In this document: positions 1 through 56,222 of the stretch, one piece after another
Layout of the letters: each line of letters begins with the position of its first letter
Numbering within the stretch: the stretch's first letter is position 1
Origin: an uncultured Acidobacteriaceae bacterium
Lineage (GTDB): Bacteria > Acidobacteriota > Terriglobia > Terriglobales > Acidobacteriaceae
Reading direction: 5' to 3'
Length of the DNA: 64,000 nucleotides
NCBI GenBank assembly: GCA_963846215.1
Contig: CAWJVC010000007.1
Location: 27,402-91,401 of the forward strand
Notes under the pieces: model-generated
The model's database searches: none
Told to the model about the DNA's origin: nothing
The model's input: the letters and a program-made list of their open reading frames with translations, nothing else
Made by a program: the position numbers and the translations under genes

Positions 1-1065
1 GCATACTTCTCGGCCGGCGGAATGCGAGGCTTCTATGCGCTCCCGCTCATCGACGACCAGGGGCGTCTCGGCATCCTGTCGTTTGAGAGCAGCGATCCCG
101 ACTTCCTCACCGTGGCGCATCTCGAAATCATTAAGGTGCTGGCCGGTCAGGCCACCGTCGCCTTGCGCAATGCGTCGCTCTATCGGGAAGTCCCGTTCAT
201 CAACCTTCTGGAACCCTTGCTGCAACGGAAGAAGCGTTTTCTCGCGATGGAAAAACGTCGGCGCGGATTCATGATCGCTCTTGCCGCTGCCGCGGGGCTT
301 TTCCTCATCTTTTGCCCATTGCCCATGCGCGTGGTTGGAGACGCTACCATAGCGTCGGCACGCTCTGCGCAAGTGTCCGCTGGCGTCGACGGCGTGGTCA
401 AAAGTGTATACGTCCGAGAGGGCGATTTTGTGAAGCAAGGGACCGTTTTAGCTGACCTTGAAGACTGGAACTACCGCGCAGACTTGGCCGCCGCCGAGGG
501 CAAGTACGAAGAAGCCGTTGCTACGATGAATCGCGCTCTGGCTCAAAATGACGGCGCTCTGGCAGGAACCGAGCGAGTCAAAGTGGACTACTCCCGAGCG
601 GAAGTGGACCGCGCTCGCGAACAATTGAAGCGCACATCTATTAAAGCCCCGTTTGACGGAGTCGTAACCACACCTCAGGTAGCGAATTCTGTCGGCCGCC
701 GCCTTGCGCACGGCGATACCTTCGCCGAAATCATCGAGATATCTCCCATCACCGCCGATGTTGCCATCCCAGAGGAAGATGCCACGTTGCTGCGGAGTGG
801 GGAACCAGCTTCCATCAAACTCGAGAGCTTTCCCCTGCGAACTTTTCGAGGCGACGTAACCCTCGTCAGTCCGCAAAGTCAGGTGGAGTCCGATCGGCAC
901 GTCTTTGTTGCCCGCGTCAGCGTTCCCAACTCGAACGGCGCAATCCGGCCCGGCATGCAGGGACAAGGGAAAGTGTCAGTCGGCTGGCATCCCGCCGGTT
1001 ACGTATTCTTCCGCGGCGCCGCCATGTGGGTCTGGGGAAAATTGTGGTCTTGGTTTGGGTGGTAG
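1..1065 (+). CDS. GAF-domain + HlyD-family membrane-fusion protein, 5' end outside window
   Basis: Frame 1 is open from base 1 (ORF track 22..1065). The sequence shows the end of a GAF-like fold (GILSFESSDPDFLT...ATVALRNASLY) and one hydrophobic helix (MIALAAAAGLFLIF). HlyD-type segments follow (VREGDFVKQGTVLADLED, IKAPFDGVV, IRPGMQGQGKV). Confidence 0.75.
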   Translation, partial: AYFSAGGMRGFYALPLIDDQGRLGILSFESSDPDFLTVAHLEIIKVLAGQATVALRNASLYREVPFINLLEPLLQRKKRFLAMEKRRRGFMIALAAAAGLFLIFCPLPMRVVGDATIASARSAQVSAGVDGVVKSVYVREGDFVKQGTVLADLEDWNYRADLAAAEGKYEEAVATMNRALAQNDGALAGTERVKVDYSRAEVDRAREQLKRTSIKAPFDGVVTTPQVANSVGRRLAHGDTFAEIIEISPITADVAIPEEDATLLRSGEPASIKLESFPLRTFRGDVTLVSPQSQVESDRHVFVARVSVPNSNGAIRPGMQGQGKVSVGWHPAGYVFFRGAAMWVWGKLWSWFGW

Positions 1066-1093: not shown

Positions 1094-2005
1094 ATGCCGA
1101 AATCCTATTCTCTCGTCCGCACTCTACTTGCAATCTGTGGGATAACACTTTCGCTTTGCGGCTGCAGCTCCAATCCTGTTGCCGCCGACGCGGCTGCTCC
1201 CCTCCCTTCAAAGCCTCCCGCCGAGGCGTCCAGTCAGAGTCAGCCGACTCCTTCGGACTACATCGCGTCTGGGCCCATCGTAGTCGAAAATCAAGTCGAG
1301 TTGGCTGCCCAGCGCGACGGCGTCGTGACGCAAGTCTTTGTGGAAGCCGGCGCGGCTGTAAAAAAAGGACAGATTCTGGCCCAACTCGATGACCGTCAGC
1401 TCACCGCCGAGAAGGATGCGGCCGCCGCTAAGGCTCGCAGCACGGACGCTGACCTTAAGAACTGGGAGGCAAGCGCCAGAGTTGCCCAATCGGCGCGCGA
1501 CCGCGCCGAACAATTATGGGCGGCGAACATCATCGCCAAATCCGAAGAAGAAAAAGCTAAGTATCAGTACGATGCTACCGAATTTGAGGTCGAGCGCCAA
1601 CGGGAGGACCTGCAACAATCGCAACAGACACTTCGATCTCTAGAACTCGAACTGGAGAAGACCAAAGTCACCGCGCCCTTTGACGGCGTCGTCGCCCGGC
1701 GCTATCTTCATGCCGGTCAGCAGGTCGCCAAGAATGATCATCTCTTCTGGATCTCGGCCGTCGCGCCCTTGCGCGTGAAATTTTCTCTTCCTGAAGCCTA
1801 CCTCGGCCGCGTGCGCAAGGGAACAGATCTGATTGTAGTCATGCCTTCCTCTCCTGGAGACATCCATCCCGCCAAGGTCATGCTCGTAGGCCCGGTCGTC
1901 GATCCTTCCAGCGATACGATTGACGTGACCGCAGAATTGCAAGGACCGACCGGCACATTGCGGCCGGGAATGACAGCCAATATCCGCCTGAAGAATCCTC
2001 AATGA
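1094..2005 (+). CDS. HlyD-family periplasmic adaptor, probable lipoprotein
   Basis: Internal ATG at 1094 with GGGGAG 7 nt upstream. N-terminus MPKSYSLVRTLLAICGITLSLCGCSS looks like a lipoprotein signal with a lipobox. It has a coiled-coil (TAEKDAAAAKARSTDADLKNWEAS...) and HlyD beta-barrel motifs (VTAPFDGVV, LRPGMTANIRL). Confidence 0.8.
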   Translation: MPKSYSLVRTLLAICGITLSLCGCSSNPVAADAAAPLPSKPPAEASSQSQPTPSDYIASGPIVVENQVELAAQRDGVVTQVFVEAGAAVKKGQILAQLDDRQLTAEKDAAAAKARSTDADLKNWEASARVAQSARDRAEQLWAANIIAKSEEEKAKYQYDATEFEVERQREDLQQSQQTLRSLELELEKTKVTAPFDGVVARRYLHAGQQVAKNDHLFWISAVAPLRVKFSLPEAYLGRVRKGTDLIVVMPSSPGDIHPAKVMLVGPVVDPSSDTIDVTAELQGPTGTLRPGMTANIRLKNPQ

Positions 2006-4146
2006 ATCTCGCCGAAGTCCTCAACGTCGCGCTTCCCGAGCTGCCGGCTCGCCGCATGAAGGGATATCCTCGGCTCCATCCCAAGCTGATCTCCGGCGAG
2101 CAGATGGAAGGCGGTGTCCCCACTGTGGTGGCGATGATCTCAGGAGACACCTCGGTATTCCGCTTCACCCCGGCCCAATGGAAGCTGGTCGAGTTGTTCG
2201 ACGGAGAACGGTCCTATCGCGAAATTGCAGAGATGTACTCGCAAAGGACTGGTTTCTACTACACCGAGGATGACATTCGGACCTTTTCCGACGGCCTCGA
2301 AGACGAAGGATTCTTCTACAAGACCTCCATCGAACTTAACATCACTGCCAGCCAGAAGCTCTCCGAAGAGCGCAAGAAGCGAGTACGGAAAAAGAAGATT
2401 GATCTGGCGGTCATGACATTTTCCACCTGGGATCCCGATGCGTTTCTCACCCGCCTGCACCACTCCGTCCGCTTTATCTATTCGAAATGGTTCACTCTCC
2501 TGACCTTGGGCGCTTTTGCGCTTATGTTCCTCATCTTTCTGAACGGATGGCGTGAGATCTCGCGAGATACCGTTGAGTATTACAGCTTTATCGACAAAGG
2601 AGCTGCCGACCTGGCGGAATTCTGGCTGCTATTTTTCGTGCTGGGATTCTTTCACGAATCTGCTCACGGACTGACCTGTAAACACTTCGGAGGAGCGGTG
2701 CACAGGATGGGATTCATGCTCATCTACCTGGAGCCAGCTTTCTTCGCCGACATCACCGAACTGTGGGTCTACGGTGGTAGGTGGCCGCGCGTAGCCGGCA
2801 TCATTGCCGGAATCTGGGTCGAGCTTATGTTCTGCGCCGTGGGGAGCATTGTCTGGTGGGGTACCCCAGCCGGAAGTCCCGTTCATGACTTTGCCTACAA
2901 GATCATGTTGATCACCGGCGTAGCCGTGATTCTGCTGAACCTCAACCCCTTGATGAAACTCGACGGCTATTATCTTTTGGCCGAATTAGTAGGTGTGACG
3001 GACTTGAAGGAGAGTTCTACCCAGTATCTCTCCAGTTGCGTGAAGCGCAAATGGTTCGGTTTGCCAGTGGAGATACCCTTCATTCCCCGTCGTCGCCGCT
3101 GGCTGTTTGCCAGTTATGCTGCCATCTCGGGTTTGTACAGCTACATAGTGCTGTTTGCCGCCGTAGATTTTTGCTATAACGTCTGCTCCCGTTTCAGCCG
3201 GGAATGGGCTTTCTTACCCGCGCTCGCGCTGGCTTTGACCATCTTTCGTTCCCGGCTGCGTTCACTCTGGAGATTTATGCGAGATTTCTATTTGGATAAA
3301 CAACAGCGAGTCCGGGACTGGTGGTCCAAGCCGCGTAAGGCTTTGGCCGCTGTCTTCGTCCTGCTCCTCCTGTTCGCACCGATTTGGCGAGAAACGGTTA
3401 CAGGGAAGTTCTTTCTTGCGCCGGAGCAGCGCTCAGTCATTCGCGCCACCGTCCCAGGAGAAATTACCAATGTCTACACCACCGAAGGAGCCTCGATCGC
3501 TGCTGGCGCCCCCGTGGTTCGCCTGCGAAGCCTTAGCCTGGAAGAGGATGCCGACAAATCCAAGTCGGATCTAACCACCGCCGAAGCAAACGCTCGTCAT
3601 GCGGAACTGTCCTATAACGACCTCGGGCAGGCGCGGGCCGAAAGGCTTTCTCAGCAAGAGCGCTATAACTCTGTGTCCAAACAAGTTGCAGCACTCCAGC
3701 TCTCCAGTCCCATTGCCGGGGTTGTTGTCACTCCCCGACTCCAGAGCTTGGTGGGTACCGTCGTTCAGGAGGGAACTGAGATAGCGGAAGTTGAGGGCGT
3801 CCAACGTCTTCAAGCGCGCATCTTTGTTCCCGAATTCCAAATCAGCAAGGTTGTACCGGGGGCGGAGGTCTCCCTGAAGTTGGAATCTTTTTTTAAGCCG
3901 ATTCGGGGACTGGTCGCCTCCGTGATGCCTGCATCGGAGAGCATTGCCGCTGGATTGCTGCAGCAAAAACAGTATGAGGGAACTGCGTCCCCAAAGTACT
4001 ACCTCGCTACGGTTTTAGTGTTCAACTCAGGCGGCCAACTGCGCCCCGGTATGTCGGGAGAGGCCAAAATCGCTGTCGTACGCAAGAGTATCGCGGAATT
4101 CGTAGGAAAGAACGTTCGTGAGTTTGTTCAGCGGAAACTCTGGTAG
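2002..4146 (+). CDS. Fusion protein: PqqD/RRE-like N-domain + M50 (site-2-protease type) zinc metalloprotease + HlyD-like C-domain
   Basis: The ATG at 2002 overlaps the upstream stop (ATGA). aa 40-106 resemble a PqqD-type winged helix (FRFTPAQWKLVELFDGERSYREIAEMY...DIRTFSDGLEDEGFFY). The multi-TM core carries HESAH (2653-2667) and NLNPLMKLDG (2938-2967). The C-terminal ~240 aa has a coiled-coil plus SSPIAGVV and LRPGMSGEAKI, as in HlyD. Confidence 0.8.
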   Translation: MNLAEVLNVALPELPARRMKGYPRLHPKLISGEQMEGGVPTVVAMISGDTSVFRFTPAQWKLVELFDGERSYREIAEMYSQRTGFYYTEDDIRTFSDGLEDEGFFYKTSIELNITASQKLSEERKKRVRKKKIDLAVMTFSTWDPDAFLTRLHHSVRFIYSKWFTLLTLGAFALMFLIFLNGWREISRDTVEYYSFIDKGAADLAEFWLLFFVLGFFHESAHGLTCKHFGGAVHRMGFMLIYLEPAFFADITELWVYGGRWPRVAGIIAGIWVELMFCAVGSIVWWGTPAGSPVHDFAYKIMLITGVAVILLNLNPLMKLDGYYLLAELVGVTDLKESSTQYLSSCVKRKWFGLPVEIPFIPRRRRWLFASYAAISGLYSYIVLFAAVDFCYNVCSRFSREWAFLPALALALTIFRSRLRSLWRFMRDFYLDKQQRVRDWWSKPRKALAAVFVLLLLFAPIWRETVTGKFFLAPEQRSVIRATVPGEITNVYTTEGASIAAGAPVVRLRSLSLEEDADKSKSDLTTAEANARHAELSYNDLGQARAERLSQQERYNSVSKQVAALQLSSPIAGVVVTPRLQSLVGTVVQEGTEIAEVEGVQRLQARIFVPEFQISKVVPGAEVSLKLESFFKPIRGLVASVMPASESIAAGLLQQKQYEGTASPKYYLATVLVFNSGGQLRPGMSGEAKIAVVRKSIAEFVGKNVREFVQRKLW

Positions 4147-4172: not shown

Positions 4173-4212
4173 AAAAAGGAAAAGAGAGACCGGCTCCCCC
4201 AGCCAGTCTCTC
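4173..4212 (-). terminator. Intrinsic terminator of the repeat-peptide gene (possibly bidirectional)
   Basis: Hairpin GAGAGACCGGCT (4184-4195) / AGCCAGTCTCTC (4201-4212) with one mismatch and a 5-nt loop. On the minus strand it is followed by TTTTCCTTTTT. It sits between the convergent stops at 4146 and 4236. Confidence 0.7.
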
Positions 4213-4235
4213 CATATCCTTTCACGACAGGCGCC

Positions 4236-4535
4236 TTAAATTTTCTTGGCGGTCGTTACATTCGGTCCGCGCTTCGCGGTCGTGATATTCGGTCCACGCT
4301 TGGCAGTCGTGACATTCGGTCCACGCTTGGCAGTCGTTACATTCGGTCCGCGCTTGGCAGTCGTTACATTCGGTCCGCGCTTGGCAGTCATTACATTCGG
4401 TCCGCGCTTGGCAGTAGTTAGTCCGGGCTGTCCTTCGACGGCCTGGAGAGGTTGAGTGGAGGCTACGTTCGTCGCGATGATGGCCTTCTTGGCCGCCGAC
4501 AGGTTACCGATCAAGGATTTCTTCTGAATCGACAT
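4236..4535 (-). CDS. 99-aa basic tandem-repeat peptide (39-aa leader-like region + 6 x TTAKRGPN[V/I] + TTAKKI)
   Basis: The ATG at 4535 has GGAGGA 7 nt upstream, a GG-N10-GC promoter about 50 nt upstream, and a hairpin plus U-tract after the stop. Differences among the repeat units are mostly synonymous, which supports this strand and frame. Confidence 0.8.
   Translation of the reverse strand: MSIQKKSLIGNLSAAKKAIIATNVASTQPLQAVEGQPGLTTAKRGPNVMTAKRGPNVTTAKRGPNVTTAKRGPNVTTAKRGPNITTAKRGPNVTTAKKI
4239..4413 (-). repeat. 27-bp tandem repeat, 6 full units (4252-4413) plus a truncated unit (4239-4251), in-frame within the peptide ORF
   Basis: The unit is gtcgttacattcggtccgcgcttggca. Units 4333-4359 and 4360-4386 are identical, and the others differ at 1-3 positions. 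Confidence 0.95.
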
Positions 4536-4584
4536 TTTGTTTTCCTCCGTTTTAATTTCGTCCTTGCTACTCGGCTCTATCGTT

Positions 4585-4600
4585 AGCATCCTGCGTGCCA
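4585..4600 (-). promoter_or_regulatory. Sigma-54 (-24/-12) promoter of the repeat-peptide gene
   Basis: The minus strand reads TGGCACGCAGGATGCT. GG and GC are separated by exactly 10 nt and TGGCAC matches the -24 consensus. It is about 50 nt upstream of the ATG and directly downstream of a sigma-54 activator gene. Confidence 0.7.
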
Positions 4601-4711
4601 AAGTCGAACCACGTCAGCCCCAATTTCGAAAGGGAGCGATATCAGTCAGTTACGGGAAGTCGCGCTATAAGGAAGGGAAAAGCCTGGCCATTCAAATGTT
4701 TGGGGCGTATT

Positions 4712-4769
4712 AAATATTAATCTAGCGTGGATGATATTTTAATCCTTACCGAAGCCTAGATTAAAATTT
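4712..4769. promoter_or_regulatory. AT-rich inverted repeat, candidate enhancer (UAS) for the sigma-54 activator
   Basis: AAATATTAATCTAG (4712-4725) and CTAGATTAAAATTT (4756-4769) are inverted copies (13/14). A third related half-site, ATATTTTAATCC, lies at 4734-4745. The centre is about 165 nt upstream of the predicted start site. Confidence 0.35.
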
Positions 4770-6169
4770 CACGCTTTCCCTATCCCATACTTCCTGCAAA
4801 GGTAATGCATCTTCTGCTTGTCGACCTGCAGAAGGCGGGCCGCTCCGATTTTGCTTCCGTCCGAGCGCCGGAGCGCCGCCGTCAGGTATGCCACCTCGAT
4901 CTTTGCGATTTCCTCGTCAAAATTGACCCCACCGTCGGGAATCAGCATGGACTCCTGGCTGGTCGCGCTGCTGTAGATCAGGCGTTGCGGCAAGTGTTGG
5001 ACCTTAACCACCGGCCCATCGACCATCAGCACCAGCCGCTGCACCAGATTTTCCAGCTCTCGAACATTGCCCGGCCATGTGTCTTCCTCCAAAATATGTA
5101 TAACTTCCGGGTCCAACCGTTTTAAGGGAACTTTATTGGATTCGCAGTAAGAGCGCAGAAAATGGTCGAGCAGCAAAGGTACATCCCCGGGACGATCTCG
5201 CAGCGCCGGAAGAACGATCGGCACCACATTGATTCGGTAATACAAATCTTCCCGAAATCGTCCTGCCCGTACCAATCCTTCTAGATCCTCGTTGGTCGCC
5301 GCAATCAGGCGAAAGTCAATCTTCTTGGGAGTGTGCCCCCCGATCCGGGTTACCGCCCGATCTTCTAATACGCGCAGGAACTTCGCCTGCAACGCCAGTC
5401 CCAGAGTCGCAATTTCATCCAGCAGCAGCGTGCCGGTGTGCGCCATTTCGATGTGGCCAGCCCGGGCATTCCTCGCATCCGTGAACGCTCCCTTCTCATG
5501 GCCGAATAGTTCCGTCTCGATCAGGTTCTCCGGCAGCGCTGCGCAGTTAAGACTGACGAACGGCTTCTGCGCGCGCGACCCCAGAGCCACGATGGCCCGT
5601 GCCACCAGTTCCTTGCCGGTTCCGCTTTCTCCCCGGATCAGCACCGTGCTCGTGCTCTCGGCAACTCTCCGGATCGCCTCATAGACCCGCCTCATCGGTT
5701 CGCTGCCCCCGATCAACTCGCAGAACGATTCTCGTTCCACTTGCTCGTCCTGCCTCTGCCGGCACTCGATATCAAACGCGCGCTTTTCCAGCGACCGCCT
5801 TAGTACATCCCGCACTTCCTCAAAGTCGATGGGCGCCACAAAATATTCATCGACCTTGGCGGCGGCCGCCTGCAGGCGCAAATTGCGGCTACTCGACCGG
5901 GTCAGTCCTACAATCACCAGGTCCGGTTCCATCTTGCGCAGTTCGATCAGGGCGTCGATTCCATCCTGGCTGCGCTCGCCCACCGTGTCGAGATCTAGCA
6001 GCACAGCGTCCGGCGCGCGCTTGTGCATCGATACCGTCAGTTCATCCCAGGTCTCCAGCACGACGAGATCGTGCTCACTTGCCAGATAGGCCTCAGCCTC
6101 GGGCCTGACTCGTTCATCGGTCGTTACGATAACGACGGCGTATCGCTCTCCTTCTGTGCGTGGAGTCAT
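4769..6169 (-). CDS. Sigma-54-dependent response regulator (NtrC family enhancer-binding protein)
   Basis: It has a receiver-like N-domain (DAVLLDLD), an AAA+ core with GESGTGKE, a GAFTDA loop (GAFTGA variant) and RELENLV, and a C-terminal Fis-type HTH (AARLLQVDKQKMHYLCRKYGI). Confidence 0.9.
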   Translation of the reverse strand: MTPRTEGERYAVVIVTTDERVRPEAEAYLASEHDLVVLETWDELTVSMHKRAPDAVLLDLDTVGERSQDGIDALIELRKMEPDLVIVGLTRSSSRNLRLQAAAAKVDEYFVAPIDFEEVRDVLRRSLEKRAFDIECRQRQDEQVERESFCELIGGSEPMRRVYEAIRRVAESTSTVLIRGESGTGKELVARAIVALGSRAQKPFVSLNCAALPENLIETELFGHEKGAFTDARNARAGHIEMAHTGTLLLDEIATLGLALQAKFLRVLEDRAVTRIGGHTPKKIDFRLIAATNEDLEGLVRAGRFREDLYYRINVVPIVLPALRDRPGDVPLLLDHFLRSYCESNKVPLKRLDPEVIHILEEDTWPGNVRELENLVQRLVLMVDGPVVKVQHLPQRLIYSSATSQESMLIPDGGVNFDEEIAKIEVAYLTAALRRSDGSKIGAARLLQVDKQKMHYLCRKYGIGKA

Positions 6170-6464
6170 GGTCCCTCCCCTTTTGCGGCGGCCCCGATTA
6201 TGTCAAAAATTCGACCCTGCAGGATGAATTATTTATTCTTTTTTCTATCGTGTCAGTGCCCTCGTTGATCGTCATACCGAGCGGACGTTTTTGCGCAACG
6301 TGAAAGCTCGGCCGGCCGCGCGAAGCGGGGCGCTCTCTGCCACGCAATAGCCGGGCATTTGGCTCGTTTCCCGATCAAACGGAGCCGCTCCCAACCCTGT
6401 ATGTACTTGCAAAACCCCGCTCGTTCCCGTAACTTTGGACGCATTCTATCGTCATGCTTCATGC

Positions 6465-6803
6465 ATGACGCCCGGTCCTGCGGAGGAGAGTTTGGACATC
6501 AACGTCCGGAAACGTTCACAAGTGCAGTTGATACAGCTGCGGGGCGCGCTTCGCATGGGGCCTGCCGTCGATACTCTGCGCCAAACCCTGGAGGAGGCCA
6601 TCGCCAATGGGGATACCAACATTGTTATGAACCTGTCGGAAGTTCCCATGGTGGATTCCAGCGGAATTGGCTTGCTGGTGCGCCATCTCGCCTTGATTAA
6701 GCAGAAGGGTGGAAATATCAAGCTGGCGCAGCCCTCTAAATTCGCCGTGCAGACCTTGCGTCTGGTGGGCGTTTTGAACCTGTTTGAGATCTTCGACGAA
6801 TGA
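6465..6803 (+). CDS. STAS-domain anti-sigma-factor antagonist (SpoIIAA/RsbV-like)
   Basis: The motif MVDSSGIGLLV carries the conserved phosphorylatable Ser, and the size is about 112 aa. The start could also be the TTG at 6435. Confidence 0.8.
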   Translation: MTPGPAEESLDINVRKRSQVQLIQLRGALRMGPAVDTLRQTLEEAIANGDTNIVMNLSEVPMVDSSGIGLLVRHLALIKQKGGNIKLAQPSKFAVQTLRLVGVLNLFEIFDE

Positions 6804-6873: not shown

Positions 6874-7314
6874 ATGTCCGCTGAGTGTGGAAGTAACCCG
6901 GAAAACAGCTCTTTGTCGGAGTTGCTCGACCTGAGCGTTCCCGCCGATTCCGAGGCGATTGCCGCCGTCGTCGATACCGTCTCCGAAACCTTGGAGCGCC
7001 TGCAGGTCCCAGAGCAGAAGCGCTTTGAAATCGCCTTGGCTGTGCAGGAAGCCTTAGCCAACGCAGTCGTCCATGGATGCGGCAACGATCCTGCAAAACA
7101 AGTTCGTTGCCAGTTAAAATCTGACCCACAGGGCCGAATTCTGATTAGCGTCGCCGACCCCGGTCCCGGTTTCAGCCCGGATGTCGTCCCCGACCCTAAG
7201 CGTCGCGAGAGTGTTTATGCCGATCATGGCAGAGGCGTTTACCTCATCCGCCAGCTTATGGATGAGGTTCACTTCGAGCGCAGCGGCAGCGAAATCCGCA
7301 TGTGGAAATATTAG
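6874..7314 (+). CDS. Anti-sigma regulatory factor, Ser/Thr kinase (RsbW/SpoIIAB-like, HATPase_c)
   Basis: N-box-like EALANAVVHG, G1-box DPGPGF, and GRGVYLIRQLMDEV. It sits immediately downstream of the STAS gene. Confidence 0.8.
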   Translation: MSAECGSNPENSSLSELLDLSVPADSEAIAAVVDTVSETLERLQVPEQKRFEIALAVQEALANAVVHGCGNDPAKQVRCQLKSDPQGRILISVADPGPGFSPDVVPDPKRRESVYADHGRGVYLIRQLMDEVHFERSGSEIRMWKY

Positions 7315-7888: not shown

Positions 7889-8395
7889 TTATTGAACGTG
7901 GATCATCTTGCCGCTTGCGTCCAATGTTCCGTGCACGCGAACTTTTTTCCCATCATACTGTTTAACCTGATCCTGGTGGTCGATGTCATACGTCTTTCCT
8001 GACTCGTCCTGTAGCACGTACTTATCGCCAGCTTTCATGATCGTTCCGCTGAAGCTTTGTGTACCAGCTGTGGCGCCCGCTGCCGGAGTCTGCGCATCTG
8101 GTGTCGCTTGTCCACCTTGGCTGGGAGTCTGGCTCGGACTCTGGCTGGGCTGAGCCTGAGAATCAGGTGCCTGCTGCCCGGATTGGTCGGCCGTCGGACT
8201 CGTCTGGCTCTGAGGCGTCGTCGCCGGTTGTTGCGCCGTCGGATCGGTTGGTTGCGTGCGTTGTGTCTCTGACGACGAAGCGGGATCGCTCGATGTCGTA
8301 GGCGGCGCCGATTGTGCGTTCAGTGAAACGCCGGCAGTCAGCAGCACAGCAAGTGTGCCAAGGGTCCACATGGACTGAAGTTGCTTTTTCATCAA
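7889..8395 (-). CDS. Secreted protein with a P/T/Q/S-rich disordered region and a small C-terminal beta domain
   Basis: Signal peptide MMKKQLQSMWTLGTLAVLLTAGVSLNAQS. About 90 aa of PTQS-rich low complexity follow, then GTIMKAGDKYVLQDESGKTYDIDHQDQVKQYDGKKVRVHGTLD. Confidence 0.6.
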   Translation of the reverse strand: MMKKQLQSMWTLGTLAVLLTAGVSLNAQSAPPTTSSDPASSSETQRTQPTDPTAQQPATTPQSQTSPTADQSGQQAPDSQAQPSQSPSQTPSQGGQATPDAQTPAAGATAGTQSFSGTIMKAGDKYVLQDESGKTYDIDHQDQVKQYDGKKVRVHGTLDASGKMIHVQ

Positions 8396-9346: not shown

Positions 9347-11796
9347 TTAGTGCCTTCCTCCGCCGCCCGATCCTCCGCGTCCACCGCGATCTCGTCCGCC
9401 GCCGCCCGGCCTTCCGCCGCGTCCGCCGCGTCCGCGATCCCGCCCTCCACCACCGGGCCTTCCACCGCGTCCACCACGATCTCCGCCATGCGGTCGATCG
9501 CCGTGAGGACGATCTCCACCCACACCAACCGGTGCCGCTCCACCTTCACGATTGAAGTTCGGTTCATCATCCGGGAAATCCCCGCCGCCCTCGATCACCA
9601 TCGATCCAGTCAGCACCGGAGCAGGAGCGGATTCCATCTCGGCGCCTGCGCCGTCCGCCGGCACTGCACCATCTCCGCCGCCCATCTTCGCGCGCTGCTC
9701 TTTCAGAATCGCTTTGCGCGACAAACGTATGCGGTTGCCCTCAACGGCCAGCACCTTCACCAGCACCTGATCGCCTTCTTTCAGTTCGTCGCGAACATCC
9801 GCAATGCGATGCTCTGCCACTTCGCTGATATGCAGCAATCCATCCGTGCCCGGAATGATTTCGACGAACGCGCCGAAATCCGCCAGCCGCGTCACCTTCC
9901 CTAAGTATGTCTTCCCAACTTCCGCCGTCGCCGTCAGGTCTCCGATGATCTGCAGCGCCTTCGCCGCCGACGCCTGATCGCTCGACGCAACTTTCACCAG
10001 CCCGGAATCTTCCACATCGATCTTTACTCCGGTCTGTTCGACGATCGAGCGAATCATCTTTCCGCCCGGCCCGATCAAGTCGCGAATCTTGTCGACCGGA
10101 ATCTGTACGGTGTAGAAGCGCGGAGCGAAATCAGAAATCTTCTCGCGCCCCGATGTAATCACTTCTTCCATCTTTCCGAGAATGTGCAACCGCCCGCGCT
10201 TAGCCTGCGCCAGCGCCTCGCGCATAATCTGCGAAGTGATCCCGGCAACCTTAATATCCATCTGCAGCGCCGTGATTCCATCCTTCGTTCCGGCAACTTT
10301 AAAATCCATGTCGCCGTAATGATCTTCCGCGCCCGCAATGTCGGTAAGGATCGCGTACTGATCGCCTTCCTTCACCAATCCCATCGCCACGCCAGCCACC
10401 GGAGCCTTCAAGGGAACGCCTGCATCCATCAACGAGAGCGACGCTCCACAAACGGTTGCCATCGAGGACGATCCATTCGATTCCAGAATGTCCGATACCA
10501 CGCGCATCGCGTAAGGCCATGACTCTTCCGAAGGCAGCACGCCCGAAATCGCCCGCTCTGCCAGGGCTCCGTGCCCAATCTCTCTACGTCCCGCTCCCCG
10601 CATAAAACCAACTTCACCTACCGAAAATGGCGGGAAGTTGTAATGCAGCATGAAGCGTTTCTTGGCCTCGCCTTCGAAGCCTTCCAGGCGCTGCATGTCG
10701 TCGCTGGTGCCAAGCGTGGTCGTAACCAGCGCCTGCGTTTCGCCGCGCGTAAAGATGGCGCTGCCGTGGGTCCGGGGCAGCACTCCCGCTTCAATCCATA
10801 TATCGCGAACTTCGTCGAAGGCGCGAGCATCGGGACGCCGTTTCTTCTCGAGCACTTTTCGCGGAAAATGCGTTCTCGCAGCGTTTCGAAATATTGCTTG
10901 AACTTCGCCAGCGCTTGCTTCGTCATCTTCCGGGATTTCCGCCTGCAACTTCTTCTTTACATCTTTGACCAGCGCGTAGCTCTCCGCTTTCGGATGCTTC
11001 TTCGTATCGAGAGCGTCCGACAAATCCGCGCCCGCTTTTTTCTTCAGCTGGTCGTAATATTTCTGATCGAATTCCGGCGGCGTGACTTCGCGCTTTTTCT
11101 TGCCGGCCTTCTGGCGCAGTTCGTTGATGGCCGTGCAGATCTTCTTGATTTCGGTGTGTCCGAATTCAATCGCGTCGACCACCACTTCTTCGCTCACTTC
11201 TTTTGCGCCTGACTCGATCATCACAATGCCATCCGCAGTTCCAACGACCATGATGTTCAGCAGGCTCTCGCGCATCTCGTCGTAGGTGGGATTGACCACG
11301 AACTGACCACTGACCTGCCCCACGCGTACCGCGCCCAGCGGACCGAGAAATGGGATATCGGAAATCGTCAGCGCAGCAGGAAGCCGCATTAATGCCCAGC
11401 ACATCCGGATCATTGCTCGCAGTCCGCAGACAGCACGAACGTGATGACTTGCGTCTCGCACTTAAATCCCTCGGCAAACATCGGGCGCACCGGCCGATCG
11501 ATCTGCCGGCTCGTAAGCACTTCGCGTTCGCTCATCCGGCCTTCGCGCTTGATAAAGCCTCCGGGGAATCGTCCGCCGGCGTATGTGTATTCGCGGTAAT
11601 CAACCGTGAGGGGGAAGAAATCAATTCCTTCGCGCGGTTCAGGATTCGCCGTCGCGGTGGCGAGCACCACGTTATCGCCCATTCTTACAACGGCTGCGCC
11701 GTGGGCCTGCTTGGCCAGTTTTCCGGTTTCAAACGACATTTGCTTCCCGCCGGCGAGGTCGACGGTGACACTGCTAACTTCTGGTTTCATATTCAT
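9347..11796 (-). pseudogene. pnp: Polynucleotide phosphorylase, reading frame interrupted (true pseudogene or assembly indels)
   Basis: All domains are recognisable: PH1 ([27 protein letters not shown]), PH2 (LPRTHGSAIFTRGETQALV), KH (IRDLIGPGGKMIRSI) and S1 (GKVTRLADFGAFVEI). They are spread over three frames: 11796-11410, a short [13 protein letters not shown] segment, then 11385-9347. The protein ends in an Arg/Gly-rich tail. Confidence 0.9.
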
Positions 11797-14556: not shown

Positions 14557-15855
14557 TTAAGCCCGTGCGGGTGCGGCTTTCTTAGGGAACATTTCGCCGA
14601 TGCGTTTAATTTGGGCGCCGACTGCGCGGAGCTTCTCTTCGATATGTTCGTATCCGCGATCGATGTGATACACGCGGTCGATGATCGTCTCGCCGTCTGC
14701 GACCAGAGCGGCGAGAACGAGCGATGCCGAGGCGCGAAGATCGGAGGCGAGTACGGCGGCGGCGCTGAGTGGAGTCTTCCCGCGGACCACCGCACGGCGG
14801 CCTTCAATTTTGATGTTCGCGCCCATGCGGACCAGTTCCTGAGCGTGCATGAATCGGTTCTCGAAAATATTTTCGGTGACGATAGAAGCGCCTTCGGCTT
14901 GCGTGGCCAGCGCCATGAATTGGGCCTGACAATCGGTGGGAAATCCGGGAAACTCTTCGGTGGACATGTCGGCAGCGTTGAAAGGATTGTCACCCATGAC
15001 GCGAACGCAATCGGCGGTCGTCTTGATTTTGACGCCGACTTCTTTGAGCTTGCTGAGCACGGCGTCGAGGTGAGCGGGATCGCAGCCGGCGATATTGAGA
15101 TCGCCGCCGGTCATGGCTCCGGCAATCAGGAATGTTGCGGCTTCAATGCGGTCGGGAATGATGCGGTGCTTTGCGCCGTTTAATTTGCTGACGCCTTTCA
15201 CATGGATGGTCGCGGTGCCCGCGCCTTCGATTCGGGCTCCCATCTTGTTCAGTAGTGCAGCAAGGTCGGCGACTTCGGGCTCGCGGGCACAGTTAAGGAG
15301 AATGGTTTCGCCTTCGGCGAGTGCGGCGGCCATCAGCAAGTCTTCGGTGCCGGTCACAGTAATTTTGTCGAAAACAATTTCGGTGCCTTTGAGGCGATCG
15401 GCAGTGGCTTCGACGTAGCCGTGGTCTTGCGTGATTTTTGCGCCAAGCTGCTCCAGTCCTTTTATGTGCATGTCGATGGGGCGACTGCCGATGGCGCATC
15501 CGCCGGGCAGCGACACGCGGGCGCGGCCGCAACGGGCGACAAGCGGTCCCAGGACGAGCGTGGAGGCGCGCATCGTCTTAACAAGTTCGTAAGATGCTTC
15601 GGGGCTGGCAAGATTCTTGCAGTGGAGGGTGGTGCGGTGATGAGCGCGTCCATAGCCGAGTTCGACTTCGGCGCCCATGGCAGCGAGCAGGTTGCGCGTA
15701 GTTTGAATATCGCGCACTTGCGGAATGTTTTCGAGGATGACCGGTTCGTCGGTGAGCAGGGCAGCGGCCATGCAGGGAAGGGCGGCGTTCTTTGCGCCGC
15801 TCACGCGCACGGTGCCGAGCAGTGGCTCACCGCCGCGGATGACAAGTTTGTCCAT
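14557..15855 (-). CDS. murA: UDP-N-acetylglucosamine 1-carboxyvinyltransferase
   Basis: The internal ATG at 15855 gives [40 protein letters not shown] carries the catalytic Cys, and the protein ends ...[22 protein letters not shown]. Confidence 0.93.
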
Positions 15856-47433: not shown

Positions 47434-50400
47434 TTATTGAGTTGGCAGGGTTACTGTTACAGAGGTTCCGGTCGAACTAGAGCGAATCTCAAACTCTCCA
47501 CGTAACTGACGAACTCGCTCCTGCATACCTTGCACACCGACTCCAACCTTTACTGGTAGATTCTTGGTCGAGTCAAACTGCGCAATTCCTGTGCCTGCAT
47601 CCCGAATCTCCACCCTCACGCGATGTGCGCCGTATTCAACACGGATTTCGGCACTATCGCTTCCGGAATGGCGATGAATGTTGGTAAGTGATTCCTGCAC
47701 GATCCGGAAGATGGCTGTCTCGATCTCCTGAGAAAGTCGTGGCAGCTTCTGATCAATCTGCAAATCCACGGGGATTCCGCTTCTTTCGGCAAAACCTTCT
47801 ATGTACCAGCGCAGAGCGGAAGCTAGTCCGGCCTCGTCCAGCAGGGGCGGATGAAGCAGGTGGGACATGGTGCGAAGTTGTTTAGATAAGTCGTCAACCA
47901 GTGCAACACTGCTAATGGCAACCTTATCCAATTCCGGATCTTTTTTCTGCAGCTGTTGCTCAAGAGAAAATAAATTCATTTTCAGTGCGACCAGAATTTG
48001 TCCGGCGCTGTCGTGCAAATCGCGCGCCAAGCGGCGTCGTTCCTCATCCTGGGCCTGCAAGAGCCTGCTGTTCAGTGCGCGAAGTTTGTGTTCTGCTTCC
48101 TGGAGTTCGGCGGTGCGCTCCTTGACCCGTTCCTCCAATTGAGTGCGCGCCAAAACTTGTTCGGTGACATTGACGACATGCACCAAGATACCTTCAACGT
48201 TTCCCGCCACGTTTCTGACGGCTTGATAGCTGAATGTTACGTAAACGATCTCCTCTTTGCCCTTGCGCTGAAGGAGGAGTTTACGGTCCGTATTAAGAAA
48301 AGGCTCGCCGCTCTCGTAAACCTGATTCAAGAGTTGGAGGAAGCCTTGCTTCTCAACCTCGGGAAGGATATCTTTCACAGTTTTGCCGACGATCTGGGTG
48401 GCGTCCTCGCGTCCGATTAAATCGAGATAAGCGGAGTTCACGAATGTGAAACGATGCTCAGGACCGCTCAGCAGAGCCATTCCAGCTGGAGCCAAAATGA
48501 AGGACTCGCGAAACCGGCCGCGCTCCAAATCGGCCTCGGCCCGCAGCAGGCGCTCCTTTTCGGCAGCTTCCGCGCGCACACGCGCCAATCTCAAGTGAGC
48601 GCCTACACGGGCCAGAAGTTCACGAGCGGTGAAGGGTTTAACCAGGTAATCGTCTGCGCCGGCATGCAGTCCTTCCACTCGTGATTCCTCGCCTGCCCGA
48701 GCCGAAAGTAGAATGACGGGCATCGATTGGGTTTCAGGATCGCTTTTCAAGTCGCGCAAGACTTCGAAGCCGTCCATGCCTGGCATGATCACATCGGTGA
48801 GAACGAGATCGGCGTGCAATTCACGCGCGGCCTTTACCGCAGCAAGTCCGTTGGAAACGGAATGGACCCGGTAGCGCTCACCCAGAAGTCGACGTAAATA
48901 ATCGCGCATGTCGGCGTTGTCATCGGCCAAGACAATCAAAGCGCCTCCGCTATCGAACTCGGAGGATTCCGTTGTGGATCCGGCAAGTGGACGGGATACC
49001 CTAATTTCGTTTGCAGCGACGGGCTCGGTTGAAGATTCGGGTAACCATCGGAGAGCTTCTTCAACGTAACTATCTGCGCGAATAGCGCTCGAAGCGAGAG
49101 TTCGTGCAGCGTCAACCCTCTCCGGGGGAAGGTGGTTTCTTCCTTTCGGGATGGTCACCGAAAAGGTCGTCCCGACCCCTTCTTTGCTGGAGGCTGTGAT
49201 GGTTCCGTGATGGAGTTTGACCAATTCTTGAACCAGAGCCAATCCGATGCCTGTGCCTTCATGGGTTCGGCCCCGGGCTCCTTCCACGCGGTGGAAACGT
49301 TCGAACAAGCGCGGCAGTTCGTGTTCAGCAATTCCGATACCCGTGTCGCTGATCTGTAACTGGACGGAGTCATTGAGAGATTCGAGACGGACCGAAACAC
49401 TTCCTTCAAAAGTAAATTTGAACGCGTTTGAAAGAAGATTCAGGACGATCTTTTCCCACATGTCGCGGTCGATGTAAATCAGCTCTGAGATGGGCTGGCA
49501 TTGAACGTCGAAATGCAAACCTGCGCGATCCATGGCCGAGCGAAATGAACTAGCGAGCTCCGCGGTGAAACTGCTAAGGTCTGTGGGCTGGTAGATGGCC
49601 TCAACCCGACCTGCTTCGATCCGCGAGAAATCAAGGAGCGAGTTCACGAGCTTTAACAAACGCAAGGCGTTGCGGTGGACCACGGTGAGGTGCTCACGGT
49701 TGGGAGCGGATAGGTTCGCGCTCGGGTTGGCGAGCGTATCTTCTAACGGGCCTAAGATCAGGGTTAACGGAGTGCGGAACTCGTGGCTGACATTGCTGAA
49801 GAAAGCAGTCTTGGCTCGATCCAACTCGGCTAAGGCTTCCACGCGCTTCTGTTGGTCCTCGAAGGCGCGAGCATCGGCGATGGCGGCTGCGAGGTTGCGG
49901 GCGACCAAGCCGAAGAACGCAGAATATTTTTCATCGAACGCCCGCCGCGGGCTGATTCCGGCAATTAAAACGCCCGTCGCCTGATTTTCTCCCGCGGCGG
50001 CGATCGGCATCAGCACTACGCTCTTGGCTTTTTGTGGCCAAGGTCCCCCAGGAAGGTTGTCGAGAGGCGCCGCCAAGGTATTCAGGACCAACGCCTCGCC
50101 GGTCGACAAAACCTTAGTCAGCGGCCAGGCAGTTTCCTGGTCTGCCTGAAGTAAGATGCGCTGCGGTGCGGCTTCATGACCTGGTTCAAGATGCATGGCA
50201 GCCACGAGAGTGGCGGACGCGCCATCGCCTTCGAGGAGATAAATAAGCGCGAATGGAATATCCAGAGAGTACTTGGCCAGAACCTCCGCAGCTAATTTGC
50301 AAGCCTGGACCGCGCTGGTGGACGGCGATTGGGAAGCGCCTAATTCTTGTAAAGCGGTTAGCCGGCGCTCGCTCAGAATTTTGTCGGTGGTTTCGGTAAC

Positions 50401-55047: not shown

Positions 55048-56222
55048 GGGTGCCAGTTATTTTTCGGCTGCCGCTTTCGGCCGCGAATTTTCTCGGTGGC
55101 CAGAAAGTTCCAGATGGTTTCGTTGGCGTTGATGGCATTGCTGGTTTTGCCAACTTCTTTTTCGCTCATGTACTGCTCGCCGCCGGGCCAGGTATTGCCG
55201 CCATCCTTTACGCTGTAGAGCACGACCTGAGCGTTGTCCTGGCAGCCGCTGTAGGTGAAGGTTTTAGTTTCCTTGCCGCCTTTTTGCGAAGGCGGAACTT
55301 TGTCCTGAGCGGGCTTTTCGTCGCAGCGGTCGAACTTGGCCCAGGTCTTGGCGCTGTCTTCGGCGGAGAGCACGTGGAACCGGCCCGGTTTGTAAGTGCC
55401 GCCGTTGTAGGGAACGATGGGGTCATCCGTGCCATTGATGAAAACCGCGGGAACGGGCGCGAGCCGGAAGGCAGATCATGGTTTTCGGCATGGCTGCGCC
55501 GACGGGAGCAATTGCGGCGACGCGATCCGCCATATTGCAGCCCACTGCGCAAGCGCCATGAAGCCGCCATCGCCCAAGCCGGTGGCGTAGATGCGGTGAG
55601 TGTCGACCGAGTACTTGAGAGCGAGCTGGTCGAGCATCTGGTTCAGAAAAGCAACATCATCCGCCGGCTCGGATCTGTTATTGTTCTGGTCGGGATTCTG
55701 TCCTCCCTGCCCCTGTCCCTGTCCTTGACCACCGCCAGGATAGCCGCCGCCACCGCCCGGATATCCTCCACCCCCGCCGGGGTAGCCACCTCCGCCACCG
55801 GGATATCCTCCGCCGCCACCCTCCGCGACGGCCTTGGCCACCGCGGCGGGGCATGCTCTCCGACGCCTGCTCAGCGTGCACTCCAATATTCCACCGCCCG
55901 CGCGTGGCGTTTGGATAGACGGCAATGATGCCAGTCTTTGTCGGCAAGCTGGTTGAAGTGCGTAAGGCGCGCCATGTCGTCGGCGTCCTGATATTGGCCA
56001 TGCAAGAGAATGACAACTGGATAACGCTGCTGTTGGTCGTAGCCTTTTGGCAGATGCACGACGTAGCTGCGGGAAACGTCGTCGACGTCGACTTTTCGTG
56101 GACGTCCTGGCCGAGCAGAGGGAGTCGGAATAGCAATTCCCGACGAGGCCAACTGCCGACGAATATGCGAACGGAGACGAGCCTGGGAAACGAAGATTGG
56201 GCGGCGAGACTTTCAACCTCAT
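55017..56222 (-). pseudogene. PHB-depolymerase-family esterase (LpqC-like), multiple frameshifts
   Basis: Fragments lie in three frames: SYVVHLPKGYDQQQRYPVVILLHG, DGIIAVYPNATRGRWNIG, RIYATGLGDGGFMA, MADRVAAIAPVGAAMP, PAVFINGTDDPIVPYNGG, and WPGGEQYMSEK. The nucleophile elbow reads GLGDG rather than GxSxG. Confidence 0.6.
55700..55822 (-). repeat. Low-complexity coding repeats: (GQ)n followed by 4 x 21-bp GGGGGYP units
   Basis: The minus strand translates to GGGGGYPGGGGGYPGGGGGYPGGGGGYPGGGQGQGQGQGGQ, inside the esterase remnant. Confidence 0.85.

Follow-up and report, generated by a model that had tools for sequence, protein, structure and literature searches.

A leader-bearing tandem-repeat peptide gene and its predicted maturation and export module in an uncultured acidobacterium

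What is the product of a small open reading frame (ORF) built largely from a tandem repeat, and how is it related to the membrane protease gene that it faces? The question is raised by a stretch of 64,000 nt (the window) from an uncultured Acidobacteriaceae bacterium (GenBank assembly GCA_963846215.1, contig CAWJVC010000007.1, positions 27,402 to 91,401), in which a 99-aa ORF carries six 9-aa units of the sequence TTAKRGPNV and lies convergent to the gene of a 714-aa protein with intramembrane protease motifs. Our reading is that the ORF encodes the substrate (precursor) of a module of seven genes for the maturation and export of peptides, in which a leader would be removed and the repetitive tail exported, with the repeat units as its cargo. 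We give this reading a probability of about 0.6.

The repeat array and its relatives

The array was the strongest repeat of the window by a wide margin in Tandem Repeats Finder (27-bp period, 6.5 copies, positions 4245-4420, 91% matches, score 282). Read in codon register it has the consensus TTAKRGPNV, with one unit MTAKRGPNV and one TTAKRGPNI, and the closest pairs of units are 1 nt apart. A preliminary description of this DNA, made from the letters alone, had placed the same six 27-bp units at 4252-4413, a register shifted by 5 nt, in which two of them are, as it said, identical at the DNA level (units 2 and 3). The two conservative replacements that it reported (T to M and V to I) are the ones seen here. 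The four synonymous differences that it counted are all present, and a fifth exists just outside its range, which brings the array to five synonymous codon variants (ACT and ACG for Thr, ACC, GCG, CGT, GTC). The remainder of the protein was also described correctly: the first 39 aa are non-repetitive, there is no Cys and no long hydrophobic or signal-like N-terminal stretch that would make a classical signal peptide, and the C-terminus is a truncated unit, TTAKKI. The precursor matched no family among the Pfam and NCBIfam profiles.

If about 25-29% of random changes are assumed to be synonymous, the 5:2 split between synonymous changes and replacements in the window array has a binomial p of about 0.01, and taken alone it is only suggestive of a constraint on the unit. 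The constraint becomes decisive because many orthologous arrays could be pooled beyond this single split. Distinct variant codons were scored against the unit consensus of each array, and the expectation was that of random single-base changes. Twenty-one arrays gave 143 synonymous and 15 non-synonymous variant codons, where 45 synonymous ones were expected (p = 5e-60), and an independent set of 31 metagenomic arrays gave 204 and 44, with 72 expected (p = 1e-67). DNA identity to the unit consensus was no higher than 80-98% in all but one array, and 82-98% in the first set of 21. This synonymous excess argues that selection holds each unit at one amino-acid sequence within a protein, and so bears out the earlier suggestion that the amino-acid unit, and not just the DNA repeat, is constrained, and widens it from seven variable sites to the family as a whole.

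The leader is constrained as well. In 17 close orthologous loci, the ratio of non-synonymous to synonymous polymorphism (pN/pS) over leader codons 2-23 was 0.085 at a pS of about 0.5, and because this ratio is low we take the window ORF to be a real gene, translated and selectively constrained. The reading frame was kept in nearly all inspected orthologous ORFs, despite their different unit lengths. Frame-disrupted orthologues, which the preliminary description had named as a sign against a coding repeat, were found in four cases, the remainder being in frame. Two genome loci have frame-shifted precursor tails (L001, 10001-12576; L025, 7200-7520), and in two metagenome loci (L054 and L059) the leader is shifted or missing. 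The frameshifts in L001 and L025 may stem from indels made in assembling the repeats, or the module may truly be decaying there; we do not read them as decay, because both loci come from metagenome-assembled genomes with scattered frameshifts. The protease gene of L001 is frame-shifted too. A joint degeneration of peptide and protease in that locus was considered as a sign of functional coupling and was dropped, since the frameshifts may be assembly errors.

A first protein search returned 15 small proteins that share the N-terminus MSIQKKSLIGNLxAAKKAIIATNVAS and whose repeated tails are wholly different, with units that include TAKRGAGMP, TTKRGLLE, LAKGT and AKNTAHVAVAKY. A profile search of 1.84 billion representative proteins then gave 157 precursor clusters (clustered at 50% identity) at E <= 0.001. 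Two long low-complexity proteins among the hits were left uninspected; all the small ones have the common leader and a tail that is basic, of low complexity and mostly repetitive. The family leader spans about 25 aa (M-S/A-I-Q-KKSLIGN..AAKKAIIAT) and is invariant at M1, I3, Q4, K5, K6, S7, L8, I9, G10, N11 and beyond, and the tails that follow it are unrelated in sequence. The layout proposed at the outset, a leader followed by repeated units, thus holds for the family as a conserved leader and a hypervariable repeated region. Close relatives may even have near-identical leaders and yet carry different units, such as LAKGT, LAKNA and LAKST. Neither the leader string IQKKSLI nor the precursor family was described in the literature searched; one apparent match, in a Granulicella omics paper, turned out to be no more than a DOI string.

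Tail statistics were taken over 180 distinct family sequences, in 87 of which the tail contains near-perfect tandem repeats. The units are 3-13 aa long, with modes at 5 and 8, the shortest being TAK, VAK and LGK, and their number ranges from 2 to about 20. The tail is 60 aa long in the window precursor and 40-130 aa in its relatives. Tails are composed of Ala (16%), Lys (13%), Ser (9%), Thr (9%), Val (8%), Gly (7%), Leu (7%), Pro (6%) and Arg (6%); Asp and Glu together make up 3%, Cys, Trp and Tyr are nearly absent, and the median net charge is +8. The range of unit lengths led us to reject two structural explanations of the tail, a pentapeptide-repeat beta-helix and a common amphipathic helix; the periods observed (3, 4, 5, 6, 7, 8, 9 and 13) share no amphipathic geometry.

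At least one Lys or Arg occurs in 86 of the 87 repeat units, and exactly one in 48 of them (for example LAKGT, TAK and PGTVR). The preliminary description had taken the Lys-Arg pair as a protease site in each unit. This pair is confined to the subclade of the window precursor (TAKRG..., P0001-P0005), and the idea of cores separated by KR sites does not survive as a family rule, because the constant feature is a basic residue in almost every unit and units are as short as 3 aa.

Two variants lie at the edge of this picture. Some loci (L016, L043, L044, L045, L047, L052) have two or three leader-bearing genes in tandem, and the tails of these multi-precursor variants are basic and weakly repetitive (for example ...LKANSLTAQSMKKKR...). 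Separately, P0016, a 136-aa protein on an 845-bp metagenome contig, is unrelated and secreted-looking, with a classical signal peptide and five SAKRGPNVPTDPWDLT repeats. Its repeats have the heptapeptide AKRGPNV in common with the window unit behind a different N-terminus, which may be coincidence or a shared functional motif.

The protease fusion and the conserved locus

For comparison of the surroundings of the gene, 26 genome loci were fetched together with 80 metagenome loci, the latter drawn from at least 553 matching stretches. The genome records all belong to Acidobacteriota, mostly Acidobacteriaceae, Ca. Sulfotelmatobacter and other Terriglobia, and one of the carriers of the module, Tunturiibacter gelidiferens X5P2 (locus L023), is a cultured strain. 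Homologues of the protease fusion numbered more than 1,699, with Terriglobales or Candidatus Sulfotelmatobacter as the organism names given; the proteins bear the annotation "putative peptide zinc metalloprotease" or "HlyD family efflux transporter periplasmic adaptor subunit". Linkage was scored in 87 Terriglobia loci that include the complete 3' end of the protease gene and at least 450 nt downstream. In 81 of these the leader motif was found on the convergent strand, no more than 1.3 kb from the protease gene.

An all-against-all comparison of 28 loci defined a module of seven genes, encoding a GAF-adaptor, a lipoprotein adaptor, the protease-adaptor, the precursor, an activator, a STAS protein and an RsbW-like protein (Table 1). 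The protease-adaptor fusion is present in 27 of the 28 loci, the activator in 26 (median identity 82%), the STAS protein in 24 and the RsbW-like HATPase_c_2 protein in 16, a count limited by the length of the flanks. No gene beyond these seven was conserved in the loci, and no second protease was found among the conserved genes.

Table 1. Position of the precursor gene, its signals and its neighbours in the window
Feature	Position	Strand	Remarks
GAF-domain/HlyD adaptor fusion, 3' part	1..1065	plus	cut by window start; in 27/28 loci
Second periplasmic adaptor (HlyD/RND_mfp family)	1094..2005	plus	in 27/28 loci
714-aa fusion: predicted RiPP recognition element (RRE), site-2 protease, HlyD adaptor	2002..4146	plus	convergent to precursor gene
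Predicted RRE of the fusion	~aa 25-105; nt 2074-2316	plus	AlphaFold2 (AF2) model and Foldseek
Intramembrane metalloprotease motifs	HExxH nt 2653-2667; NPLMKLDG nt 2944-2967	plus
HlyD/MacA-like periplasmic adaptor domain of the fusion	~aa 470-714	plus	Pfam, NCBIfam, MacA 4dk1
Intrinsic-terminator-like hairpin	4183..4213	minus	13-bp stem, then T run; 23 nt after stop, between convergent genes
Precursor gene	4236..4535	minus	ATG at 4535, stop 4238-4236; 99 aa + stop
Leader, aa 1-26	4535-4458	minus	conserved leader segment of precursor
Variable linker, aa 27-39	4457-4419	minus	between leader and array
Six full 9-aa units TTAKRGPNV	4418-4257	minus	codon register
Truncated seventh unit TTAKKI	4256-4239	minus	C-terminal end of precursor
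Ribosome-binding site GGAGGA	4543..4548	minus	7 nt 5' of ATG
Sigma-54 type -24/-12 element TGGCACGCAGGATGCT	4585..4600	minus	-12 GC 50 nt upstream of ATG
Three AT-rich palindromes (GGATTAAAAnnTnATCC-like)	4709..4771		inverted repeats I2 and I3; overlap 3' end of activator gene
Sigma-54-dependent activator, atypical receiver domain	4769..6169	minus	directly upstream of precursor gene, same strand
STAS-domain protein (anti-sigma antagonist type)	6435..6803	plus	divergent from activator gene; Pfam annotation of orthologues
HATPase_c_2 protein (RsbW-like serine kinase/anti-sigma type)	6874..7314	plus	STAS partner

The protease part of the fusion is related to proteases that act on small ribosomal peptides. 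Residues 23-387 match the NCBIfam model NF041824 (daptide_HExxH) over model positions 1-341 of 379, with E = 5.9e-43 and 147.4 bits; the equivalog cut-off of 300 bits is missed, so that the two are homologous and not equivalogs. The match to NF058609, the epipeptide M50 protease, is weak (4.2e-8, 33 bits against a cut-off of 225 bits). In 31 homologues of the fusion, H218, E219 and H222 are invariant, as are N315, P316, L317, K319, L320, D321 and G322, and by its HExxH and NxxPxxxLDG motifs the protein belongs with Peptidase M50, the site-2 proteases. A lenient scan with Pfam PF02163 (Peptidase_M50) gave 13.8 bits against a gathering score of 27.2, and from its sequence the protease part is best described as a divergent M50 relative.

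The N-terminal domain was recognized by its predicted fold. A lenient Pfam scan of this region gave no PqqD match, and an RRE, the leader-binding domain of systems for peptides that are made on ribosomes and modified after translation (RiPPs), is invisible here to sequence profiles. The AF2 model of residues 1-165 has a predicted local distance difference test score (pLDDT) of about 80 for residues 21-100 and shows three strands followed by three helices. Its top matches in Foldseek are the leader-bound RREs TbiB1 (5v1u; E = 3e-3, probability 1.0, template modelling score 0.70 on the target) and lasso B1 (6jx3), followed by the RRE-bearing radical SAM enzymes CteB and SkfB. The model thus identifies the domain as an RRE, with a leader-binding fold. 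Together with the homology to MpaP, the daptide protease, this predicted domain fits the earlier proposal that the neighbouring membrane protease is the processing partner of the peptide.

The C-terminal part is an adaptor domain, and it was the only part of the fusion matched by a sequence search of the PDB (MacA-like, 4dk1). HlyD_D23 and HlyD_3 score above the Pfam cut-offs in all three adaptor proteins of the module, which have the barrel-sandwich and beta-barrel domains of HlyD adaptors; the cognate pump and outer-membrane factor that belong to such adaptors are missing from the module. The second adaptor (MPKSYSLVRTLLAICGITLSLCGC...) is probably a lipoprotein, and full-length orthologues of the GAF-adaptor have 700-800 aa and three GAF domains. 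Mean pairwise identity along the fusion is 83% at the N-terminus, 74% in the site-2 protease core, 58% in the RRE and 59% in the adaptor, and this per-domain conservation gives no pointer to the part that touches the variable tail. The first 24 residues (2002-2073, MNLAEVLNVALPELPARR...) are the best-conserved segment of the whole protein, at 83% identity. A fusion of RRE, site-2 protease and HlyD adaptor in one polypeptide was not described in the literature searched.

The signals around the precursor gene are those of a sigma-54-dependent unit: in the sequence, the -24 GG and -12 GC lie at the right spacing, a bacterial enhancer-binding protein (bEBP) is encoded next to them, and palindromes are found upstream. 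Of 27 loci examined, 26 have the element, TGGCAY-N5-TTGCT, with 7-10 of 10 consensus positions and at a distance of 47-91 nt upstream of the ATG. Most orthologous loci also have two or three similar palindromes at the equivalent upstream position, and those at 4709-4771 are a putative enhancer (upstream activating sequence) for the adjacent activator. A GGAG-type ribosome-binding site is kept upstream of the orthologous precursor genes. Against Rfam, the terminator hairpin gave only a chance sub-threshold miRNA match. Two more one-mismatch matches to the sigma-54 consensus were seen, at 15606-15621 (plus) and 48014-48029 (minus), and a total of three in the window is no more than chance would give.

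The receiver domain of the activator (residues 1-125) scores 29.9 with Pfam Response_reg against a cut-off of 30.2, and at the site of the conserved Lys that precedes Pro its sequence is FVAPIDF. The STAS/RsbW-like partner-switching pair beside the bEBP hints at non-canonical control of the latter. PADLOC matched only the AAA+ activator, with RtcR/PspF-type models, and assigned no defence system.

Three other features of the window lie apart from the module. A polynucleotide phosphorylase homologue (9347-11461, minus) has a long C-terminal Gly/Arg-rich tail with GGRGGRPGGGGRDRG repeats, visible in the DNA as 9-15-bp tandem repeats at 9374-9518. A 168-aa protein (7889-8395, minus) combines a signal-peptide-like N-terminus with a long low-complexity region rich in Gln, Pro, Ser, Thr and Ala and a short globular C-terminus. 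A 21/42-bp tandem repeat at 55728-55814 (CCACCGCCGGGATAGCCTCCG, 4 copies), if translated from the opposite strand, would give a repeat rich in Gly, Tyr and Pro.

Proposed maturation and the alternatives

The key steps of the proposed pathway are as follows. The activator would switch on the precursor gene from the sigma-54 promoter. The leader (KKSLIGN...AAKKAIIAT) would dock on the cytoplasmic RRE of the fusion protein, the HExxH intramembrane protease would cut it off, and the basic repeat tail would enter a periplasmic conduit made of the three adaptor proteins, with the repeat units as the functional cargo. The ORF is probably a precursor of processed peptides, which are probably exported. 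We favour, without proof, release of the units, by a cut at each basic residue, as many identical short basic peptides (here approximately GPNVTTAK/R), because the units are under sequence-specific selection and multi-copy precursors show the same divergence at synonymous sites only. With such release each round of translation would yield many peptides, as happens with the multi-copy precursors of pheromones or antimicrobial peptides. Two precedents bear on the protease: a paper on daptides describes MpaP as an RRE-dependent leader peptidase, an intramembrane site-2 protease with an RRE fused to its N-terminus, and a review states that the M50 protease EpeP is thought both to cleave and to export its epipeptide, which is a precedent for the coupling.

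Maturation and export are supported by the RRE match, the MpaP homology, the invariant protease motifs, the 81/87 linkage and the conserved module. Several points weigh on the other side. Cleavage, export, the product and indeed every step after transcription are inferred. The fusion misses the curated cut-off of each family that has a name, and the AF2 model of its residues 1-470 is poor in the membrane part (mean pLDDT 57). The flanks of the 28 loci hold no conserved modifying enzyme, and the system is therefore not a RiPP in the strict sense, for which at least one modification enzyme is required; two other marks of RiPPs, a conserved leader with a variable core and an RRE predicted in a neighbouring protein, are present. 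The same flanks hold no conserved ATPase, ABC, RND or MFS pump or outer-membrane factor, which could be encoded elsewhere, so that the module explains neither the energy source nor the outer-membrane route, and outward movement of a +13 peptide opposes the membrane potential. Finally, it is hard to believe that units of 3-4 aa (TAK, VAK, LGK, RPAV) could be active as separate peptides.

A product of another kind would be the whole polycationic tail, exported uncut once the leader is removed and acting as an antimicrobial polycation, or as a cross-linker or binder of anionic polymers of the envelope or matrix. Repeat-containing cationic antimicrobial peptides and epsilon-polylysine are precedents for an intact polycation. 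The charge and composition of the tails (median +8, 3% acidic residues, almost no Cys, Trp or Tyr) would suit such a role, 3-4-aa units would make little sense as free peptides, and the module has no second protease that might cut the tail. A function that depends on charge and composition only should, however, allow conservative substitutions, and the arrays have hardly any replacements, against a divergence of up to about 20% at synonymous sites; nor do the periods of 3-9 and 13 share an amphipathic geometry. We regard export of the intact tail as the close alternative to release of the units, and yet as rather unlikely. The tail might instead stay in the cytoplasm, as a small, basic, disordered binder of nucleic acid or polyphosphate like histone H1, Hc2 or AlgP, with the membrane protease either freeing a tethered pro-form, as in the pro-sigma-K/SpoIVFB model, or being functionally unrelated. 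Its richness in Lys, Ala, Pro and Thr is akin to histone-like tails, some relatives have KPAH or PAKAPAKM units, one (P0008) has a weak precomputed Pfam match to HC2, and the positive-inside rule and the lack of an encoded pump would favour retention. The window protein itself, however, has no match to HC2 or to any other Pfam or NCBIfam model, exact unit identity under selection combined with fast turnover of units between species is atypical of nucleoid proteins, and three conserved periplasmic adaptor domains, one of them fused to the protease, would have no role. We consider a cytoplasmic binder unlikely, because the precursor is near-invariably linked to the fusion of RRE, protease and adaptor.

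A regulatory role is a further alternative, in which the peptide would serve the adaptor-protease complex, or else the circuit of sigma-54 activator and partner switching, as a regulatory ligand or a decoy substrate, for example as a plug or feedback element that the GAF domains would sense. The module is rich in regulators (the activator, the STAS and RsbW-like proteins and the three GAF domains on one adaptor), and the precursor is the sole obvious sigma-54 target beside the activator. A regulator would be expected to be conserved, whereas these tails are swapped wholesale between close relatives and vary in copy number from 2 to about 20, and this role seems very unlikely to us. The case that there is no gene at all, the ORF being a by-product of a DNA tandem repeat between convergent genes, draws on two observations: a 69-aa ORF on the opposite strand also runs through the repeat, and the exact window peptide and its Tunturiibacter orthologue are both absent from a collection of 15 billion proteins, neither being present as a called gene. 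Genes of this kind are often overlooked by gene callers. Purifying selection on the leader codons, the large synonymous excess in the arrays, the conserved ribosome-binding site and promoter, the terminator, and a frame kept in nearly all orthologues despite different unit lengths leave this explanation with next to no credence. Maturation and export of the peptide is thus the reading that we prefer. In its most detailed form, which we think rather improbable, the leader would stay bound to the RRE, and the intramembrane protease would move along the threaded tail with a cut before or after each basic residue, so that bursts of identical cationic peptides of 3-13 residues would pass straight into an adaptor conduit that lacks an ATP-driven pump. 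The peptides would act as species-specific signals, for kin recognition or peptide quorum sensing among Acidobacteria, or as antimicrobials in amplified amounts, and sigma-54 and partner switching would control the system.

Comparison with known systems

Few bacteria in soil are as abundant as the Acidobacteria (Terriglobia), and their peptide-based chemistry and signalling are almost uncharted. The family is large: its precursors form at least 157 clusters, the protease has more than 1,699 homologues, and metagenomes contain at least 553 loci. Its units are frozen within a species and replaced between species. If the units are released, the system would be a bacterial counterpart of the multi-copy precursors of eukaryotic pro-hormones and antimicrobial peptides and, for a Gram-negative phylum, a candidate system of peptide signalling. 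Export of the whole tail would instead make it a polycation of ribosomal origin that has its own secretion route.

The daptide systems of Actinomycetota and Bacillota (MpaA/MpaP) resemble the window locus in having small leader-bearing precursors beside an RRE-fused HExxH intramembrane protease. They differ in that the window locus has none of the enzymes MpaB, C, D and M; its leader contains KKSLIGN (MSIQKKSLIGN) in place of ELExMEAP; and its peptide ends in ...TTAKKI, without the invariant C-terminal Thr of daptides. The cargo is a basic tandem repeat in the window and a hydrophobic helix in daptides, the window protease has an additional C-terminal HlyD adaptor domain, and the host is a Gram-negative acidobacterium. 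Epipeptide loci of Bacillus (YydF/EpeX with YydH/EpeP) likewise have a membrane M50-type HExxH protease that is proposed to cleave and export a small ribosomal peptide, but the window module lacks their radical SAM epimerase and ABC transporter and differs in precursor architecture and regulation.

On the side of the substrate, multi-core precursors (fungal alpha-factor and dikaritins with Kex2 KR sites, insect apidaecin, the cyanobactin precursor PatE and multi-repeat Phr pro-peptides) consist of a leader followed by identical tandem units with synonymous differences. The window family shares with them a basic residue at almost every unit boundary and a copy number that varies between strains; unlike them, it does not conserve KR, has units down to 3-4 aa and has no subtilisin/Kex2-like or PatA/G-like protease. 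The tails of Hc2, AlgP and actinobacterial HU are similar in composition, being basic repeats of low complexity with much Ala, Lys and Pro, but the window family has in addition a conserved leader, a link to the protease-adaptor and units swapped between species. Exporters of the C39-ABC, HlyD and TolC type (CvaAB, NHLP/Nif11), which serve leader-dependent bacteriocins and type I secretion, also rely on HlyD adaptors and on a leader at the N-terminus of the substrate, and the protease that acts on this leader is physically joined to their export machinery. In contrast to these, the window protease is an intramembrane metalloenzyme fused to an adaptor and not a Cys protease on an ABC pump, the leader has no double-glycine motif, and the module contains no gene for an ABC transporter or outer-membrane factor.

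The precursor system belongs to none of these, because the family cut-offs are missed, the enzymes of daptide and epipeptide loci are absent, the dibasic site is not conserved and there is no pump. The closest enzymes are the RRE-site-2 protease peptidase of daptides and the epipeptide M50 protease, the closest substrates are multi-copy pro-peptides, and the closest logic is that of C39-ABC/HlyD exporters. The system is a variant of leader-guided peptide processing, widespread in Terriglobia, that combines an unusual substrate with an undescribed enzyme fusion.

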